Below, in pieces: positions 16,764 through 25,457 of a stretch of DNA of 64,000 bases. The DNA is taken from assembly GCA_048938385.1 (NCBI GenBank), contig JBHLMG010000007.1, forward strand, positions 1-64,000, read 5' to 3'. The DNA is from Promethearchaeota archaeon (GTDB taxonomy: Archaea; Asgardarchaeota; Hermodarchaeia; Hermodarchaeales; Hermodarchaeaceae). A program made the position numbers and the translations under genes. A model generated the notes under the pieces. The model was not told where the DNA came from and ran no database searches. It saw only the letters and a list, made by a program, of their open reading frames with translations. Numbering within the stretch: the stretch's first letter is position 1; each line of letters begins with the position of its first letter.

Positions 16764-19535
16764 TCATTTCTTTCTGGTTGTTTTTTTCCCTGACTTTTTA
16801 ACCGGTTTTGTACTAGGTTCTTCGTCGGGGCGCCATTTCCGTTCTTCTCGTAGGTTCAGTTTAGCCGTTACCAAACCATCTGTTGATCGCTTCAGTGCGA
16901 AGCCCATTTTTTCCATTATGCGTTGGGCTCGGTAGTTATCAGGTAACATTACGCCATAGAGTTCTTCGAGTCCACGCTCTGTACTGATTTCAATCATATA
17001 ATCTAACATTTTCGATCCTAATCCCAGACCTTGCCAGGGATCTGCAACAATGAATGCAATTTCTCCGCGTTTTCTATCAGGGTCTTCGATGAGACGGACA
17101 ACTCCTAGTATACGTTGTTGATTTCCTTCTTGGAGGACTGCAACTAGACCGAGTTCTCGGTCATAATCGATGTTTGTATAGCGGATTCGGACCTCGTGGG
17201 GTGTGTCTTTGATGATTTCAAAAAATCTGTACCGAATTGATTCCTCAGAGAAGTTCTGGAACATTTCCAACCACAAGGGCTCGTCTTCTGGTTTGATGGG
17301 TCGAAAGAGCACATTTCGTCCATCGCGCATACGCCAAATTAGTTCATACCGTTTTGGATAGGGACTTATCACTAGTTCCTTAGAGGGCTCACTTTTTTTT
17401 CCTATTCGATCAAGATTAATCACTACCCGTGCATCCAAAGCAATGGCTTGTTTATTATCAACTAAAAGAGGGTTGATGTCAATTTCCTGAATTTCGGGAA
17501 ATTCGATTACCATTTGAGATAATCGTACGATGAGTTCTTCAAGCACTTTCAAGTTAGCTGGTGGCAAGCGTCTATGTCCATGTTTGAGGATTTTGAACAC
17601 TCGGGTTTCTTCCATGATTCGCCGAGCCAGGGTTTGATTTAGGGGGGGAAATCCGATGGCGACATCTTTGAAGAATTCTACACCCATGCCCCCCATACCA
17701 AACATAATTGTTGGTCCAAAAAGGGGGTCTCGTTTTGCTCCTAGGATCACCTCGGTCCCTGTTGGCTGCACCATCGGTTGTACTGTGACTCCTTCAATGT
17801 TAGCTTTGGAATTGTACTTCTTTGCCGCTTTCAGAATTTGGTTGTATGCCTCGCGAACTTCGTTGTCGGTACGGAGGTTGAGTTGCACTCCACCAGCGTC
17901 GGATTTGTGGGTTATGTCAGGGGAGAGAAGTTTAAGAACCACAGGGTAGCCCATACTGCCTGCAACAGCGGCCGCCTCGTCAACAGATTTTGCAACTCTG
18001 GTTTTTACTACAGGAATGTTATAGAACTCTAAAAGCTGTTTTGCCTCAGCTTCAGTGAGGATAGTTCGCCCATCCTTTGCGACACCGCGTAAAAGCACCG
18101 TAACCGGGCGTTTAGGTGGAGCACTTTCAATGGAGAGCTCTTCAGGTGTTTCATAAAGCAAGTCGAGGCTTTGTTTGTATTTACACATGTACATGTATGT
18201 TGCAATAGCCTGTTCTGGGGTCCAGTAGGTTGGATAGCCGCTTTCAGCGAATATTTGATTGGCTTCACTGATTTTTTCTCCGCCAATAAAAGAGGTCAGG
18301 ATGGTCTTTTTACATCCGCCTCGTAAGTCACACATTCTTACAACGCTTGTGGCTATTGCTGATGCAGCTGTAACGGCTTGTGGAGTGAAAATAATGAGAA
18401 TTCCATCTATATTAGGATCTGCCAGACAGAGATCTAGCACTGCGCGATATCTTTCTGCATCCGCATCTCCTAGTACATCAATTGGATTTCCACGACTCCA
18501 ATAGAGTGGTAAGATTTTGTCAAGTTTTTTGATTGTAGCTTCACTAAGTTTTGCTAATTTTCCACCTCGGGCGATTAGTGCGTCAGCTGCCATCACTCCT
18601 GGACCTCCGGCATTGGTGATAATGGCTAGGCGGGGGCCTTGTGGAAGTGGTTGCATGCCAAGGACTTCAGCAGCATTGAAAAGATCTGAAATTTCTTCTA
18701 CACGGACGATCCCTGCTCGTTTGAAGGCAGCATCATAGACTAAATCAGAACCAGTTAATGCTCCTGTGTGTGAAGCTGCGGCTTTTGCACTTTCAGTAAA
18801 TCGTCCTGATTTTACCACAATGATGGGTTTGGTGCGAGCAAAGTGTCGTGCTGCGCTCATGAACTTTCGGGCATCGGTGATGCCTTCCATATACATGAGT
18901 ATGCTTCGAGTGTGAGGATCGCTACCAAAATAATCGATGAGATCACCAAAGTCGACATCAGCCATTGAGCCGACTGAAACGAAGTTGCTAAACCCTATGT
19001 TTTCCTTCGTTGCCCAGTCGATGATCGCAGAACCCAAGGCACCGCTTTGAGAGATAAACGCGATATTACCGGGCTTTGGCATGGTTTCGGCAAAGGTTCC
19101 ATTCAAATTGATTCGAGGTCGAATGATTCCGAAGCAGTTAGGTCCGACAATCCGGAGATTATACTTCTTCCGAAGAACTTTGATTTCTTCTTCAAGTTTA
19201 CGACCCTCCTCACCGATTTCTTTGAATCCTGCTGATATGATTATAATTCCAAGGATTTTCGCTCGGCCGCACTCTTCCACGATTCCGGCAACGGTTTTCG
19301 CAGGCGTAGCGATGATGGCCAAGTCTACGGAATCAGAAATAGCACCGACATTAGGGTAAGTCTTGATTCCCATTACTTGTTCATGGTTGGGATTCACAGG
19401 ATAGACTGTTCCCTCAAACCCTGTCTGAATGAGGTTTCGCAATAAAATGTTTCCAACGGATCCTACTTTTTCACTTGCACCAACCAGTGCAATACTCCGA
19501 GGGTTAAAAATTCGATCTAAGTTTATCGTGACCAT
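16764..19535 (-). CDS. ADP-forming acyl-CoA synthetase alpha+beta fused to a C-terminal GNAT (Pat/YfiQ-type lysine acetyltransferase architecture)
   Basis: GPNCFG, SQSGA, SHTGAL, NAGG and HKSDAGGV motifs; GNAT motif QGLGLG. Confidence 0.92.
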   Translation of the reverse strand: MVTINLDRIFNPRSIALVGASEKVGSVGNILLRNLIQTGFEGTVYPVNPNHEQVMGIKTYPNVGAISDSVDLAIIATPAKTVAGIVEECGRAKILGIIIISAGFKEIGEEGRKLEEEIKVLRKKYNLRIVGPNCFGIIRPRINLNGTFAETMPKPGNIAFISQSGALGSAIIDWATKENIGFSNFVSVGSMADVDFGDLIDYFGSDPHTRSILMYMEGITDARKFMSAARHFARTKPIIVVKSGRFTESAKAAASHTGALTGSDLVYDAAFKRAGIVRVEEISDLFNAAEVLGMQPLPQGPRLAIITNAGGPGVMAADALIARGGKLAKLSEATIKKLDKILPLYWSRGNPIDVLGDADAERYRAVLDLCLADPNIDGILIIFTPQAVTAASAIATSVVRMCDLRGGCKKTILTSFIGGEKISEANQIFAESGYPTYWTPEQAIATYMYMCKYKQSLDLLYETPEELSIESAPPKRPVTVLLRGVAKDGRTILTEAEAKQLLEFYNIPVVKTRVAKSVDEAAAVAGSMGYPVVLKLLSPDITHKSDAGGVQLNLRTDNEVREAYNQILKAAKKYNSKANIEGVTVQPMVQPTGTEVILGAKRDPLFGPTIMFGMGGMGVEFFKDVAIGFPPLNQTLARRIMEETRVFKILKHGHRRLPPANLKVLEELIVRLSQMVIEFPEIQEIDINPLLVDNKQAIALDARVVINLDRIGKKSEPSKELVISPYPKRYELIWRMRDGRNVLFRPIKPEDEPLWLEMFQNFSEESIRYRFFEIIKDTPHEVRIRYTNIDYDRELGLVAVLQEGNQQRILGVVRLIEDPDRKRGEIAFIVADPWQGLGLGSKMLDYMIEISTERGLEELYGVMLPDNYRAQRIMEKMGFALKRSTDGLVTAKLNLREERKWRPDEEPSTKPVKKSGKKTTRKK

Positions 19536-19751
19536 TGACAAGTTCTCCGTTTTGTTGCAATTATGTTAAACGATAAGTGTATCGTTTGTTTATACCGATT
19601 TCCTTGCTGTAAAGAACCAGGTCGTACCTCTTCACCTAAACATAATGCATTTTTATTTACTAGGCTGGCAGTTGGGGAGGTTATGTGTTCGATGTACTGA
19701 GGTGGGCTTTTGGATATTCGAGGAGTTGCGGTGTATTCGTTATAGGTGTCT

Positions 19752-21689
19752 TCATTTACTAGGTTTGGCGAGAAATTCCTCCAAAAAAACAGCGTATTCA
19801 CATGGATGCGTACCATCCTGAATGAGCGATTTGATGACTTTGATTCGTCCTTTATCTGTTTTAGCGACGCGGGAAAGAATGTATTCGATTGCTTTCTTAC
19901 GGAATGAACATAGCCATGTTTTTTGGTTGTTCTTCACCAGCTTGTAATAGGGACAAGTACGGTATTTGAGGGTGAATCCACCTTCGAAGTATTCAATTTC
20001 CACTTGTATACCAAGTTCACGATACATCTCAAGCAGGCGGTCTCCAATTTCATGGATTGTCCAAGGGTAATCAAGGGGAAAGAGTTGATCTAAAGTGGGT
20101 TTCACCTGACTGAGAGCGTTTTTAAGGGAATCTGCAGCGATTGCATCGCTGACCATTTGAACCACTTCGCTGCGATGCAGAGGGCTAAGAAAAGGTCTTT
20201 CGACCTTCTTCACCATCACATTCAGTAGGTTTCGGAATTCGGTGAAGGATGCTTCATATCCTAATGCATCAAGTAGTGAACTAATGATTAATCGCTGACT
20301 TGTTATGGTCACCAAATCCATTTGCTTGAATACTACTGAAAAATTCTCTTCATCAATAAATCGCACTTCAGCACCAGGTTGGGCTTGATGGATGTTTTTC
20401 TCAACGAAGCTTCGAATTAATTTTCGTATCTGCGATTCATCATTTTTTGTCAACATTCGAATGGCGTTAGCAACCCGAAAACCTATGCTACGAAATATTT
20501 CCTCAAATCGCCGGCGATCACTATCATAGACTTTTACCGTAAGTGTATCGTATAACTCACGTGGTACGGCAATTGAGTCTAAAAACTGCTCATTCACAAC
20601 CTGATATAAATTCAAAACGCTCAACTGATCTAATACATCTTGTGTTCCTTCAACTAACTCGATGTGTAAAGTACCATGGTTGTATTCTGTCGAATAGCGA
20701 TTGAGCTTCCATCCCCGTGTCGCTAGGATTAAGGCAAAAGTAACAGTGGCTATATTAGCCATCGAAGGCGATGTTGCCTGAAAAGTAATACTATATTGGT
20801 TATCGGATTCGTGGCCAATTTTACTCTGGGAAATCCAATTCATGCTTCGAGCTGCTTCTAACAATCCTTGCATGAAATCCTTAGGGTTGGTCGCTAGTTC
20901 TGCTGGTCTTATAAATAGTTGAATATCTTCAATGACGGTTCCCAAATCAGAAATTGAACCTTCAAGGCTTTTTGCAGCCCATTTCAAGAACGCTGGTCCA
21001 ACTAGCGCTAATTGATCTTTATAGAGTTGGGGTGTTAGAGTTTCAAGCTTTTCTCGCATGCGTTCAATGATTACCTGTAGAGTGTCAGTTCGTCGGATGG
21101 CTGCGATATCTCTCCGAAGCATTTTTACAATGATTTCTTTTCGCATTATCCGCAGGTCAAAATGAACCCCAACTCCTTCCAATATGATTGCTAATTGTAA
21201 AGCGATTAATTCAGGCATTCGGAGAAATAACAATGGTCGGAGTACAACCGTGTTATCCATTTCGCGATGTGATGTAATCTCAAATAATCGGGTGATCTCG
21301 CTGATTTGCTCAAATACTGTTAAAAATTCTCGGAATTGCGTGGGAGGTTTCCACTGGATAATGCTTTTAATCAGTTCAATTGAATTTTGCGCTTCATTCA
21401 CTTGCCACTGAATGAATTCATCTATTGTTTGGTCAGCAAGAGCAATTTTTAGAAGTTCATCAAGGAAATCTCGGCGAACAGAAGCTAACTCTAATGCATC
21501 ACGCAGCTTGTTCTGTTCTTCAATCTGTGCTTTTAACTCACAATCTTCACAAGAACCAACTTTATCGACGCGTAATAGCGTTTCTAAAGCCATTTCAAGG
21601 ACCCGGCTCTTTGTTCCGTAAGTTTCAGCTAATTGATCTAACATTTCACCCGATTTTTTGGGAATAGTGGTATGGATGTGCACAGACAA
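19752..21689 (-). CDS. Putative transcriptional regulator: N-terminal ribbon-helix-helix, CxxC and tandem V4R/MetOD1-like domains
   Basis: VHIHTTI..(helix)..TKSRVLEMAL is RHH-like. The C-terminal CPY...LC...HPCEY Cys triad is typical of V4R-like domains. Confidence 0.65.
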   Translation of the reverse strand: MSVHIHTTIPKKSGEMLDQLAETYGTKSRVLEMALETLLRVDKVGSCEDCELKAQIEEQNKLRDALELASVRRDFLDELLKIALADQTIDEFIQWQVNEAQNSIELIKSIIQWKPPTQFREFLTVFEQISEITRLFEITSHREMDNTVVLRPLLFLRMPELIALQLAIILEGVGVHFDLRIMRKEIIVKMLRRDIAAIRRTDTLQVIIERMREKLETLTPQLYKDQLALVGPAFLKWAAKSLEGSISDLGTVIEDIQLFIRPAELATNPKDFMQGLLEAARSMNWISQSKIGHESDNQYSITFQATSPSMANIATVTFALILATRGWKLNRYSTEYNHGTLHIELVEGTQDVLDQLSVLNLYQVVNEQFLDSIAVPRELYDTLTVKVYDSDRRRFEEIFRSIGFRVANAIRMLTKNDESQIRKLIRSFVEKNIHQAQPGAEVRFIDEENFSVVFKQMDLVTITSQRLIISSLLDALGYEASFTEFRNLLNVMVKKVERPFLSPLHRSEVVQMVSDAIAADSLKNALSQVKPTLDQLFPLDYPWTIHEIGDRLLEMYRELGIQVEIEYFEGGFTLKYRTCPYYKLVKNNQKTWLCSFRKKAIEYILSRVAKTDKGRIKVIKSLIQDGTHPCEYAVFLEEFLAKPSK

Positions 21690-21713
21690 GGAAGTTCCCT
21701 CAATTCAAGGCAA

Positions 21714-21749
21714 TGTACACCAATTTATTAATCTTGTACATGGTGTACA
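21714..21749. promoter_or_regulatory. Three TGTACA boxes flanking the TATA box of the RHH regulator
   Basis: TGTACA at 21714, 21735 and 21744; minus-strand TTAATAAA lies between boxes 1 and 2. Confidence 0.6.
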
Positions 21750-21791
21750 GGTGACTCTGTCTTAAAAAAAAGAAAGGCAGCAAAAAGCTGC

Positions 21792-23570
21792 CTAAGAACT
21801 CTGTAAGGCTTTTGGTGCTGATTGAATCATTCTTTCCCTGACAAATGAGCGCTTCCTGGTTTGCATGGCATAACCAATTCGGCGTAAAGCCAGCATGTAG
21901 GCTGCGATTCGCATTGGAACATTATATTCTTTTGAGAGTGCTAACACATCCTGGAATCCAGTTTGCATTATGTGTTTCAATTTACTTTGAACCTCTTCAA
22001 CTGTCCAGAAGTAATTCATTTGGTTTTGTACCATTTCAAAGTAGCTTACTGTAACACCGCCAGCGTTAGCTAAAATGTCGGGAATGAGGAAGATGCCTCG
22101 TTCATAGAGGATTTCATCAGCCTCAGGAGTTGTGGGACCATTTGCTCCTTCAGCAATGATTTTGGCTTTGATGCGAGGCGCGTTTTCAACGGTAATGGCG
22201 TTTTCCAAAGCTGCAGGGATGAGAATGTCGCAGTCGAGTTCCAAGACATCTTGGTTACTGATTCGAACGGAGTTTTTGTAATCAATCACTGAACCAGTGG
22301 AATTCTTGTGTTCTTTTACCTTCTTCGGATCAAGGCCCTTCGGGTTGAAAATGCCTCCTTTCGAATCAGAGACTGCAATAATTTTACAGCCTAGCTCATG
22401 GAGGATACGAGCGGCATGAAAACCCACATTTCCAAATCCCTGAACAACCACGCGGGCATCTTTCAGTAGTATGTCTAGATCTTTAAGGGCTTCTGTGACA
22501 GTATAGACCAGGCCAAGTGAGGTAGCATCATCGCGCCCTTTTGAACCTCCAATTCCAACAGGTTTTCCTGTCACAACACCAGGACAATATACGCCTGTGC
22601 ATTCAACATATTCATCCATAATCCAAGCCATCGTTTGCGAGTCGGTGTACACATCTGGGGCAGGAACATCGGTCTGCGGACCAATGAATCGGACTAATTC
22701 TCTAGTGTATCCACGAGTCAGGCGTTCTAACTCACCCATTGACATTTCTTTAGGATTACAACGTATCCCGCCTTTACCGCCACCCAAGGGAAGGCCCACG
22801 ACAGCAGTTTTGAATGTCATCCATGCCGATAACGCGATGACCTCATCTAGTGTTACATCTGGATGATAGCGAATGCCTCCTTTATTGGGACCCAAGGCAT
22901 CGTTATACTGGGACCGGTATCCAGTGAATACCCGAACGCTACCATCATCCATGTGAACTGGAATGTTGACGATAAGGATGCGTTGGGGATGACGAAGAAC
23001 CTCATGAGTGGCTGGGTCCAAACCCAGTATTTCGGCAGCGAGATCCAGCTGTTGAAGTGCTGCTTCGTAGGGGTTAGGTGTTGGTGTTACCGTAGCAAGG
23101 GTTTGAATATTGACAGCTGTAGCTTTTTGCAACTGTTCTATCAGATGGTCACAGTGGAATCGAATTTTTTCGATATCGCCACCATGAATCCACTTGAAAT
23201 AATCAGTGAAGGCTTCTAGTCGATCACTTAACAAGCTCTCTTTGGTATGAGCAGGGCTCTCAGCAAAGTAGTCAAACATAGCGTCAATAATTTGAAGTTC
23301 TAGACGGCACAAGTCGCCATTTCCTGAATCATCAGGGCATTCAATGTTCATATATTCAGCACTACGGATCTTCGAAGCAAGTCTGTCGAAGATGCTTGTT
23401 GTGTCTTTGAACGGAATCTTGTAGTTTTCTGACAATGCTGTCATTAAAGCGTAATGAGTAGAGGTGATGTTTTCAAGACCCGCAGTGTATTGGGGCTTGT
23501 CCGCAAAAAAGTCGACCATTAACTTCTGCAAGCCCAATTCTATTGGAGTTAATTCAACCAGGTTCAGCAT
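21792..23570 (-). CDS. gdhA: Glutamate dehydrogenase with a roughly 165-aa N-terminal extension
   Basis: KGGIRYHP, GGGKGG, VPAPDV, TGKP..GGSKGR, GFGNVG, EGANGP, NAGGVTVSYFE. Confidence 0.95.
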   Translation of the reverse strand: MLNLVELTPIELGLQKLMVDFFADKPQYTAGLENITSTHYALMTALSENYKIPFKDTTSIFDRLASKIRSAEYMNIECPDDSGNGDLCRLELQIIDAMFDYFAESPAHTKESLLSDRLEAFTDYFKWIHGGDIEKIRFHCDHLIEQLQKATAVNIQTLATVTPTPNPYEAALQQLDLAAEILGLDPATHEVLRHPQRILIVNIPVHMDDGSVRVFTGYRSQYNDALGPNKGGIRYHPDVTLDEVIALSAWMTFKTAVVGLPLGGGKGGIRCNPKEMSMGELERLTRGYTRELVRFIGPQTDVPAPDVYTDSQTMAWIMDEYVECTGVYCPGVVTGKPVGIGGSKGRDDATSLGLVYTVTEALKDLDILLKDARVVVQGFGNVGFHAARILHELGCKIIAVSDSKGGIFNPKGLDPKKVKEHKNSTGSVIDYKNSVRISNQDVLELDCDILIPAALENAITVENAPRIKAKIIAEGANGPTTPEADEILYERGIFLIPDILANAGGVTVSYFEMVQNQMNYFWTVEEVQSKLKHIMQTGFQDVLALSKEYNVPMRIAAYMLALRRIGYAMQTRKRSFVRERMIQSAPKALQSS

Positions 23571-23600
23571 TTGACTTCACCTGGTTAACCTAGAATATAA

Positions 23601-23646
23601 TGTTCAACTATTCAAAGCTTATGTTCATTATGTTCATTAATGTACA
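23601..23646. promoter_or_regulatory. Four TGTWCA boxes in the gdh / KaiC-like divergent promoter region
   Basis: TGTTCA at 23601, 23622 and 23631; TGTACA at 23641. Confidence 0.6.
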
Positions 23647-23704
23647 TCAAACAACAGCCACACATATAATCCGCAACTAACCAACATTGGTTTTGTGGTA
23701 TTCA

Positions 23705-24433
23705 ATGCGCTGTTCAACTGGTATTCCAGTCCTAGATGAAATCCTTGGGAAGGGATTAATCTTAGGGGAGAATGTAGTCTGGGAATATGAAACCGGTACC
23801 TTTGTCAACGAATTCATGCAAAACTTCATGCGACAAGGAATTGTGGAAAAAAACCAAGTAATTTACTTAGATTTCATCTATCCGCCGCAAGCTTTGTTAT
23901 TATTTCTTGAACCTTTGATGAGCTCACTTCCTTCTGGTTGGGAGAAGTATTTTTTAGTCTTGGATTGTTTCTCCGAATCGAGCGGTCGTGGAGAACTTAT
24001 TTTCACCGATTTCTATGATAAGGCACCCTCTTGGATTCGCAAAGTTCCGATGTCTCGTGAAGTTGAGCGGTTCCATCATTTCTTTGGACGGATAGAAAGG
24101 GAGTTCATTAGTGAGGGAACCCGACTAGTAATAAACAGTCTTACAGCCATGGAAATCATTTGGGGACAGGAAAATGCGAAATTGCTTTTCGGGCATATCT
24201 GTCCTGCTTTGTATGCTTACAAAACCTTGGCCTATTGGACAATGAAGCAAAATGCCCATAATAAGGAGTTTCTTGCGGCAATCGAACATACTACGCAAGT
24301 CGTTATAGAGTTGAATCGAATTGATAATCAACGATCACTCCGCGTAAAAAAGGCCGGTGGTCGCTACCAACCTCTAACTTATGAATCATATCCCTATCAG
24401 GTCGAAGAGTTAAATATCGCAATCAAAAAGTGA
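23705..24433 (+). CDS. KaiC/RAD55-like RecA-fold protein, probably ATPase-inactive
   Basis: STGIPVLDEIL..G N-terminus. Walker A is replaced by YETGTFVN and Walker B reads LVINS. Confidence 0.8.
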   Translation: MRCSTGIPVLDEILGKGLILGENVVWEYETGTFVNEFMQNFMRQGIVEKNQVIYLDFIYPPQALLLFLEPLMSSLPSGWEKYFLVLDCFSESSGRGELIFTDFYDKAPSWIRKVPMSREVERFHHFFGRIEREFISEGTRLVINSLTAMEIIWGQENAKLLFGHICPALYAYKTLAYWTMKQNAHNKEFLAAIEHTTQVVIELNRIDNQRSLRVKKAGGRYQPLTYESYPYQVEELNIAIKK

Positions 24434-24620
24434 TGAATCCCATTTAATATGGATGCACCTGGTTACACCGATTTAGGGGTGGTTCTTCTCTTCCCTTCAT
24501 TGGTGATACAAGTGCGCCTTGGTCAAAATTAGGGCTTAACCTAAAACATCGATAATCTTTATCAAGTATCCCTTCACCCGCCAATCAGAACCCACTTTAA
24601 GCTTGGAAAGGCGCTACGAA

Positions 24621-25457
24621 ATGTTCAAAGTATTAGCCACCCAGCAAATCGCGACCGATATCTATGAGTTTGATATCGAAGCTCCCGAAATCGCTGAAAA
24701 AGCTAAGCCCGGACAGTTCTTGATCTATCGCCTTAATGAACACGGAGAGCGTATTCCTCTCACCCTCAAAGACTGGAACAAAGAAAAGGGTTCCATCACT
24801 ATAGTATTTCAAGTTCTTGGAAAATCTACTCTAGAACTTTCTCAGTTAAAACCCGGTGATGTCATCAAAGACATCATCGGACCACTTGGTAAAGCTCCTT
24901 CTGCTGAGAAATATGGCACCGTAATTGTAGTTGCAGGAGGTTGTGGTGCAGCCCCTTCTCTGCCAAGAGCACGACAGCTCAAAGAAGCTGGAAACTATCT
25001 CATCACAATTCTTGGTGCCCGTCAAGATAACCTATTAGTTTGTGAGTTGGAACTCAGCCAAATCAGTGACGAACTCTACATCACCACCGACGATGGTTCA
25101 AAAGGCATCAAGGGTTTTGTTACAACAAAGCTGAAAGCACTGTTGGACTCGGGTAGGAAAATCGATTATGTTTTCACTGTAGGCCCTCCAATCATGATGA
25201 AGTTCGTCGCCGCAACCACCAAACCCTTTGGCGTGAAAACGGAATGCAGTTTGAATCCCATAATGGTCGATGGAACCGGGATGTGTGGGGCATGCCGTGT
25301 CGAAGTAGACCAAGAGACGAAATTTGCATGTGTGCATGGTCCTGAATTCGATGCCCATGCTGTCAATTTCGATTTACTAATGAAACGCCTTGACACCTAC
25401 AAAGCCCAAGAAACTAAAGCGATGGAATCTTACAGACAAACTTGTGCTCATCGTTAG
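24621..25457 (+). CDS. sudB: Ferredoxin:NADP+ oxidoreductase / sulfide dehydrogenase small subunit (NfnA/SudB)
   Basis: PGQF, ERIPLT, GPLG, TDDGS.G, DGTGMCGACRV, CVHGPEF. Confidence 0.93.
   Translation: MFKVLATQQIATDIYEFDIEAPEIAEKAKPGQFLIYRLNEHGERIPLTLKDWNKEKGSITIVFQVLGKSTLELSQLKPGDVIKDIIGPLGKAPSAEKYGTVIVVAGGCGAAPSLPRARQLKEAGNYLITILGARQDNLLVCELELSQISDELYITTDDGSKGIKGFVTTKLKALLDSGRKIDYVFTVGPPIMMKFVAATTKPFGVKTECSLNPIMVDGTGMCGACRVEVDQETKFACVHGPEFDAHAVNFDLLMKRLDTYKAQETKAMESYRQTCAHR

Follow-up and report, generated by a model that had tools for sequence, protein, structure and literature searches.

A conserved cassette of a long glutamate dehydrogenase, an inactivated KaiC-like protein and a candidate ribbon-helix-helix regulator, with shared promoter boxes, in Bathyarchaeia and one Asgard family

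We analyzed a stretch of 64,000 nt (hereafter, the window) from contig JBHLMG010000007.1 of a Promethearchaeota archaeon of the Hermodarchaeaceae (assembly GCA_048938385.1). It contains three adjacent genes that code for a glutamate dehydrogenase (GDH) with an additional N-terminal domain, a large putative regulator, and a divergent KaiC-like protein. Judged by comparison of about 60 genomes of Bathyarchaeia and Hermod-type Asgard archaea, the three genes are one inherited unit (a cassette), with the same TGTACA-type boxes at its promoters. An original prediction for this stretch had described them as a candidate new system of glutamate/nitrogen control. The genes are located as follows (all positions are those of the window):

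19752-21689, minus strand: regulator gene, an open reading frame (ORF) of 645 aa with a TTG start; ribbon-helix-helix (RHH)-like head, a CxxC motif and four helix/hairpin modules.
21792-23570, minus strand: ORF of the long GDH, 592 aa.
23705-24433, plus strand: KaiC/RAD55-like gene, 242 aa from the ATG at 23705, divergent from gdh.

The regulator ORF lies 102 nt downstream of gdh, and both are on the minus strand. The alignment of orthologues placed the start of the regulator at TTG 21689 (the proteins of the family begin with MSVH) and that of the KaiC-like protein at ATG 23705, not at TTG 23687. The sequencing runs that contain this stretch derive from sediment and mangrove DNA, with no RNA run among those listed.

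Full-length homologues of the regulator were found in Hermod-type Asgard metagenome-assembled genomes (68-80% identity) and in many Bathyarchaeia (46-62%). An exhaustive profile search of 1.84 billion cluster representatives gave only 46 matches: a single full-length cluster, some fragments, and a small number of shorter paralogues (493-519 aa) without the last module. We took 80 loci from species-representative genomes, of which the 58 with enough flank were judged for gene order. The order is the same in all of them (58/58), with the KaiC-like gene pointing leftward and the long GDH and regulator genes rightward, while the genes flanking the cassette vary between loci. Within the window's own family the presence is all or none: 10 genomes have the three genes on one contig, 7 have none of them, and 2 are cut by contig ends. 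Thus, the comparison of gene neighborhoods across Asgard and other archaea bore out the prediction of a conserved unit, with the trio recurring in relatives together with its boxes and amid different flanks. To call it an Asgard system would be incorrect, since the cassette is mainly a feature of Bathyarchaeia; when 150 further Asgard genomes were sampled, 11 of the 18 belonging to the window's family had the regulator, compared to 0 of 132 from 26 other families. In a tree rooted on the paralogues, the Asgard clade (support 100) is nested within Bathyarchaeia, as sister to L027/L028 (97) and then to L029/L030 (100). This nesting, in a tree obtained by a quick search and with long outgroup branches, suggests that the Asgard lineage acquired the cassette as a whole in a single horizontal transfer.

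Some loci outside the canonical set are worth mentioning. In L081 the three genes are reordered (GDH leftward, then the KaiC-like gene and the regulator rightward), and the regulator is very divergent (42% identity). L098 has only adjoining fragments of the KaiC-like and regulator genes and is possibly a decayed copy. L095, a 3.5-kb contig labeled as the bacterium Candidatus Acidoferrum, codes for a C-terminal portion of the regulator (52% identity), more likely by a binning error than as a bacterial copy.

The two intergenic regions of the cassette in the window contain arrays of TGTWCA hexamers (boxes) together with TATA-like elements:

21714-21749, no strand assigned: operator-like array at the regulator promoter, three TGTACA boxes at 21714, 21735 and 21744 (steps of 21 and 9).
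21724-21731, minus strand: TATA-like element TTAATAAA, within the N15 spacer; one box and a further 24 nt separate it from the downstream start codon of the regulator.
23601-23646, no strand assigned: array of four boxes between gdh and the KaiC-like gene, at 23601, 23622, 23631 and 23641 (steps of 21, 9 and 10).
23607-23621, minus strand: N15 spacer with the TATA-like element of gdh (consensus of the family, TAA..TTTcTATA.T).
23663-23670, plus strand: putative TATA-like element CATATAAT of the KaiC-like gene, separated from the outermost box by 16 nt.

The 21 + 9 spacing is common to both arrays, in agreement with the earlier description of one hexamer array in both regions. Taken alone, TGTWCA is not enriched across the window (80 found versus 68.6 expected). 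The composite TGTWCA-N15-TGTWCA-N3-TGTWCA is present in exactly two copies in the 2.48-Mb assembly, on the same strand and both in the intergenic regions of the cassette, and the reversed pattern, used as a control, gave 0 matches in the 2.48 Mb. No other intergenic pair of boxes was found genome-wide, all the remaining pairs at N15, N3 or N4 being located inside long ORFs. TGTWCA boxes are also absent from the intergenic DNA near an ordinary GDH/GltB-like locus on contig C2.

The arrays are placed on predicted promoters and are conserved across two phyla. The spacer between the KaiC-like gene and gdh has four hexamers at offsets 0/10/19/40 in 58/58 loci, with scores of 22-24 out of 24, compared to a mean of 14.7 and a maximum of 19 for the same architecture in shuffled sequences. 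The gdh-proximal box reads TGAACA in every one of these loci (58/58), and the consensus of the 15 nt between boxes 3 and 4, given above, is a TATA-like element bracketed exactly by the two boxes. Of the box sites, that at the gdh promoter is conserved most strictly, so that gdh transcription itself appears to be a target. Upstream of the regulator gene, a perfect pair of hexamers at N14 or N15 was present in 66 of 69 related loci, versus 0.1% of shuffles. In Asgard-type loci this pair flanks a TATA-like ATTAATAAA, and in Bathyarchaeia loci its second box abuts a TATA-like TTTAAAAG. For the KaiC-like gene, the element in the window lies 16-35 nt from the outer two boxes of the divergent region, which are upstream of it, and in relatives the distance between box 1 and a TTTTTAA-type element varies. 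In ca. 39 Bathyarchaeia loci the KaiC-like gene is followed, on the same strand, by a gene for a 535-aa protein with a partial match to the glutamate-synthase FMN domain, so that the four-box region there would separate a GDH transcript from a predicted transcript of the KaiC-like and glutamate-synthase-like genes. The presence of this gene in most Bathyarchaeia loci strengthens the link of the cassette to the glutamate node.

The long GDH is divided as follows:

21792-23075, minus strand: catalytic core, residues 166-592, with the ELFV domains spanning residues 166-572.
23076-23570, minus strand: N-terminal extension, residues 1-165, internally duplicated, acidic and with no known fold.

The core is ca. 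55 to 60% identical to solved hexameric GDHs (E = 1e-147 against PDB 2tmg), matches Pfam ELFV_dehydrog_N (3.9e-58) and ELFV_dehydrog (4.1e-86), and has intact catalytic motifs (KGGIRYHP, GGGKGG, PAPDV and GANGPTT are retained). With the NCBIfam equivalog GdhA_Arch the protein scores 572 bits, below the cut-off of 750. By these comparisons, this GDH is a paralogue that has diverged and has an additional domain. The genome also codes for an ordinary GDH of 420 aa, next to a 532-aa GltB-FMN-domain-like ORF (C2:141534-145245). This ordinary GDH was found in 18 of 19 genomes of the family, including those without the cassette, and the long GDH is therefore an accessory, specialized paralogue. In some Bathyarchaeia (L013) the ordinary GDH and GltB-like genes directly adjoin the cassette. 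Glutamine synthetase is present in the genome, and no gene for a P-II protein (GlnB/GlnK) was found in the assembly, which is 89.8% complete.

As for the extension, the duplicated module that had been proposed ahead of the core is confirmed by the alignment of its two halves, with a Smith-Waterman score of 51, a value not attained by any of 500 shuffles (23.2 ± 4.2). An AlphaFold2 (AF2) model (predicted local distance difference test, pLDDT, 82; predicted template modeling score, pTM, 0.79) consists of two b-a-a-a-b units. The extension is kept in all orthologues (31-78% identity). No structural relatives were found with Foldseek against PDB (E > 0.3), VIA-align (best Z, 4.4), or Atlas (TM score ≤ 0.34), and the Atlas feature searches, both with the extension and with the head of the regulator, gave nothing usable. 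The best of the weak structural matches are mostly winged-helix or helix-turn-helix proteins (Z 3.3-4.4), which would fit a reading in which tandem winged-helix-like units of the extension bind the boxes, the GDH being a DNA-binding trigger enzyme and the 645-aa protein having some other job. We find this barely credible. These Z values are far below significance, the isoelectric point of the extension is 4.3-5.4 in all 19 orthologues, an acidic charge that argues against DNA binding, and regulator paralogues in loci without any GDH still have related boxes at their own promoters.

The KaiC-like protein has profile matches in PDB to KaiC (E = 1.7e-6) and Sso2452 (E = 7e-5). In Pfam it scores 35.8 bits with PAXNEB (cut-off, 28) and 22.8 bits with the KaiC ATPase, below the cut-off of 26.6. 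The absence of a Walker A motif, already pointed out in the original prediction, was evident from the alignment, where the KaiC sequence GTSGTGKT corresponds to E-x-E-[ST]-G-T-F-[AV], with GKT replaced by F-[A/V]-[R/N]. The degeneration extends to Walker B, whose Asp is changed to Asn (RLV[IF]NSL) in at least 90% of 32 orthologues, and to the catalytic FEE of KaiC, which aligns with LDF. The 32 orthologues lack both the Lys of Walker A and the Asp of Walker B and are 63-87% identical across phyla. The protein is, by its residues, an inactivated KaiC under strong constraint.

The third protein has no family in Pfam or NCBIfam that describes its 645 aa as a whole. The segments that could be recognized are the following:

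21555-21689, minus strand: RHH-like head, residues 1-45, with invariant strand residues H4, H6, T7, T8 and I9.
21540-21551, minus strand: C47-x-x-C50, directly after the head, invariant in 30 homologues.
20196-20627, minus strand: module 3, residues about 355-498, V4R/Bet3/H-NOX-type fold by structure comparison of the model.
19755-20183, minus strand: module 4, residues about 503-645, MetOD1/V4R-like, with invariant C579, C594, H628 and C630.

In the head, the strand pattern V-H-L-H-T-T-I and G25 are invariant in the 30 homologues, and the AF2 model has helices at residues 11-24 and 27-43. Three regulator homologues carry JGI names of CopG or RelB/DinJ antitoxin. From this pattern, the head is probably, but not certainly, of the ribbon-helix-helix (MetJ/Arc/CopG) type. 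The remainder of the AF2 model (pLDDT 69.5 for the regulator) contains four repeats of helices, hairpin, helix, and hairpin. Module 3 is the one with clear structural neighbors, i.e., Bet3/TPC6 (VIA-align Z 9.0-9.6 over 116-126 aligned residues), the V4R sensor domains of DmpR (6iy8, Z 8.0 over 134) and MopR (Z 7.8-7.9), and H-NOX (Z 7.1), and Foldseek also retrieved H-NOX and TRAPP matches. Module 4 passes the Pfam cut-off for MetOD1 (PF18546, 23.8 bits) in the homologues P0088, P0095 and P0111 (24.2-26.3 bits), the score of the window's own protein being below it (15.2 bits, E = 0.023). Its three-Cys cluster (C579, C594, C630) and H628 are invariant in 30 sequences, and a conserved Cys cluster has been used to relate MetOD1 to V4R, H-NOX, and ATC hydrolase (PMC5847659). 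Modules 1, 2, and 4 share with module 3 only the order of secondary structure elements in the model. Hence, of the RHH protein with four V4R-like domains that had been predicted, the four helix/hairpin modules, the fold of module 3 and, through homologues, the MetOD1-like character of module 4 have stood, while modules 1 and 2 keep only the rhythm and the RHH head is recognized by pattern only.

Paralogues of the regulator provide a natural comparison of head and box. In P0129 and P0136, the His4 of the main family is replaced by Arg (strand VRLHTTIS), and their own promoters, at independent loci on two unrelated contigs, have TGTGCA/TGCACA pairs around TATA-like elements. In P0127 (strand HVHVV) the boxes are TGAACA/TGTACA. 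The shorter paralogues (493-519 aa, without the Cys-bearing last module), found at L018:4126-4299, L100:3860-4000 and L017:4213-4562, are divergent from REC-only response regulators and a histidine kinase, or located near CDC48, and have hexamer arrays of their own at the promoters (TGTGCA/TGCACA or TGAACA). All this looks like a wider, undescribed family of RHH-like regulators with partner proteins.

If the boxes moved between phyla along with the genes, the protein that binds them should be encoded in the cassette, and the regulator is the candidate because it is the only potential DNA-binding protein that travels with the boxes. The fixation of H4, H6, T7, and T8, presumably the DNA-reading residues of the strand, supports this assignment, and the covariation of strand and box in the paralogues supports the reading of the boxes by the head and argues against coincidence. 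Our preferred reading, to which we give a probability of roughly 0.7, is that the regulator is a one-component factor that, by binding to the boxes, controls both gdh and the regulator gene, with its V4R-like modules and Cys sites acting as sensor and the other two proteins as modulators. Both the DNA binding and the direction of the regulation we infer from the comparison of sequences. The head would dimerize and read the palindromic TGTACA-type hexamers, and a higher-order assembly of the regulator would span hexamers that are 9-10 and 21 bp apart. Most likely, the regulator bound to the two boxes that bracket the TATA-like element of gdh would exclude TBP/TFB and repress the long GDH gene. 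The boxes that flank (Asgard type) or abut (Bathyarchaeia type) its own TATA element would result in autoregulation, and the two outer boxes of the divergent region could co-regulate the KaiC-like transcript. The predicted control of the regulator gene, gdh, and the KaiC-like gene has gained comparative support (a conserved unit, boxes on the promoters, covariation).

Several observations weigh against this proposal. In Bathyarchaeia, the pair of boxes at the regulator promoter sits upstream of the TATA element and not around it, an arrangement also compatible with activation. In the monomer model, residues 1-10 of the head are coil, with no N-terminal strand. The matches of the head to RHH_3 (Pfam, two homologues, E = 0.13 and 0.9) and ParD (E = 0.13) are not significant, no Pfam RHH match was obtained for the window's own protein, and in the PDB profile search the head scored best with DNA ligase, in a helix-hairpin-helix segment (E = 4.5e-4). 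The fold comparison related modules 1 and 2 to nothing more specific than generic alpha/beta units, and the four modules did not match each other by hhalign (probability ≤3%) or, significantly, by pairwise Smith-Waterman alignment. Given that the RHH assignment is statistically weak, one might consider the boxes to be sites of an unrelated host factor, or a structural feature of the promoters, and their link with the regulator coincidental. However, the boxes stayed with the cassette when it passed between Bathyarchaeia and an Asgard family, they are found nowhere else in the intergenic DNA of the genome, and they covary with the strand in the paralogues, all of which makes this explanation very improbable.

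Assuming that the regulator does bind the boxes, the four V4R/H-NOX-like modules, the Cys cluster, and the CxxC motif would constitute its sensor. For the signal, a metabolite of the glutamate/2-oxoglutarate node is our first guess, and the main alternative is thiol or metal redox chemistry, in which the CxxC and Cys3-His cluster would switch DNA binding upon oxidation or loss of metal. The invariance of C47, C50, C579, C594, H628, and C630 is what such a switch would predict, and a gene for an NfnA/SudB-like redox protein follows the KaiC-like gene in Hermod-type loci. However, three of the four modules have no Cys, and the boxed genes are those of GDH and, in Bathyarchaeia, of the glutamate-synthase-like protein, not oxidative-stress genes. 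The Cys cluster of PoxR and MopR binds structural zinc. The presence of the cluster in these two proteins (PMC5847659) hence speaks against redox sensing, whereas the precedent of MsvR, in which cysteines of the V4R domain modulate redox-sensitive DNA binding (PMC3729527), speaks for it. On balance, we regard a redox signal as somewhat unlikely.

The inactive KaiC-like protein and the acidic extension of GDH are probably partners specific to the cassette, with a modulating effect on the factor or on the enzyme through direct contact. The contacts that we infer among the three proteins come solely from their strict co-inheritance. Complex prediction with the GDH extension, the KaiC-like protein, and regulator residues 86-645 gave scores of 0.00, 0.34, and 0.00, which are neither for nor against binding. 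A different possibility is that the cassette acts mainly after translation, the KaiC-like protein and the regulator modules docking on the extension to tune the activity or assembly of GDH, and DNA binding serving only to autoregulate the unit. The very strong conservation of all three proteins across phyla (61-87% for the KaiC-like protein, 31-78% for the extension) would agree with this, as would the accessory, specialized nature of the long GDH and an acidic extension that is unlike any DNA-binding module. Yet the strictest conservation of the boxes is at the gdh promoter, which makes gdh transcription a target, and we consider a mainly post-translational role quite unlikely. A more speculative extension of the preferred reading, which we hold as possible but tentative, is a self-contained, horizontally mobile metabolic switch whose sensor includes the enzyme. 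Here, the GDH extension would dock on the KaiC-like protein and/or the regulator modules, and the flux or ligand state of the GDH active site would be relayed, through these protein contacts, to the occupancy of the promoters.

In the literature on GDH extensions and Bathyarchaeota and on V4R plus RHH proteins, we found no publication describing the regulator family or the cassette. Several known systems resemble parts of it. NikR, MetJ, CopG, Arc, and omega have a short N-terminal strand-helix-helix head and short palindromic or tandem subsites, to which the candidate head of the regulator and its putative boxes would correspond. RHH repressors form cooperative arrays with subsites one helical turn apart, and the half-sites of NikR are about two turns apart. 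In contrast to these repressors, the sensor here is V4R/H-NOX-like and not ACT-like, the protein is 6-14 times larger than a typical RHH protein, and there is no significant profile match. MsvR joins a helix-turn-helix head to a single V4R domain. This methanogen-specific regulator is a one-component factor and autorepressor of archaea, with a DNA-binding head, a Cys-bearing V4R sensor, and repeated boxes at its own promoter (PMC3729527). It differs from the present case in being a homodimer that responds to redox (PMC3729527), whereas here there is an RHH-like head, four modules in ca. 645 aa, and putative targets that include GDH and the KaiC-like gene. The coupling of a catabolic GDH to a factor that chooses between glutamate synthase and GDH is known from RocG/GudB and GltC of Bacillus subtilis (PMC6794564), and the Bathyarchaeia cassette includes a glutamate-synthase-like gene; however, GltC is of the LysR type, RocG has no extra domain, and the contact of GDH and regulator is here only putative. 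In haloarchaea, GvpD, a Walker-motif protein of the KaiC/GvpD/RAD55 family, controls the factor GvpE by direct interaction, also with a divergent promoter pair (PMC4390858). GvpD needs its P-loop, unlike the KaiC-like protein described here, in which the Lys of Walker A and the Asp of Walker B have been lost in all 32 orthologues. Finally, divergent and probably inactive KaiC modules (iKaiC) have been proposed as archaeal signaling adaptors (Makarova, Galperin and Koonin 2017, cited in PMC5847659). The examples mentioned in the citing article are fused to REC, HalOD1, etc. (PMC5847659), while that of the cassette is a stand-alone protein associated with a GDH and an RHH-like sensor.

The surroundings of the cassette in the window add the following features:

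16764-19541, minus strand: 925-aa fusion of an ADP-forming acyl-CoA synthetase and a GNAT acetyltransferase (ACD-GNAT, Pat-like), downstream of the regulator gene.
21760-21792, minus strand: putative terminator-like hairpin (GGCAGC, 5 nt, GCTGCC) with a T-run, 3' of the GDH stop codon.
24603-25457, plus strand: NfnA/SudB-like FAD/NAD-binding iron-sulfur protein gene, after the KaiC-like gene in Hermod-type loci.

The ACD-GNAT gene is kept at this place only in Hermod-type loci (9 of the fetched loci) and is therefore a lineage-specific neighbor outside the cassette. The NfnA/SudB-like gene occupies, in Hermod-type loci, the place that the glutamate-synthase-like gene has in most Bathyarchaeia loci. 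Another ORF at 19523-19816 (minus strand, 97 aa) overlaps the 3' end of the regulator and the spacer before ACD-GNAT; it had no family match and was treated as spurious.

How Bathyarchaeia and Asgard archaea control transcription has hardly been explored, and their cultivation is difficult. The cassette offers a circuit that can be read from sequence, with a candidate factor, defined putative operators on three promoters, a target enzyme at the branch point of carbon and nitrogen, and two unexplained partner modules. It even includes a natural variant of specificity, in which the His of the strand changes to Arg and the box from TGTACA to TGTGCA. As no P-II gene was found in this 89.8%-complete genome, the cassette may be among its few dedicated controls of the glutamate node. 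Our reading would give a first function to a family of ca. 645-residue proteins, to a GDH domain of unknown fold, and to a stand-alone inactivated KaiC. If, in addition, the enzyme does act as a sensor, the cassette would represent a trigger-enzyme circuit of archaea, with a pseudo-ATPase as its adaptor, apparently transferred whole from Bathyarchaeia to a Hermod-type Asgard family.

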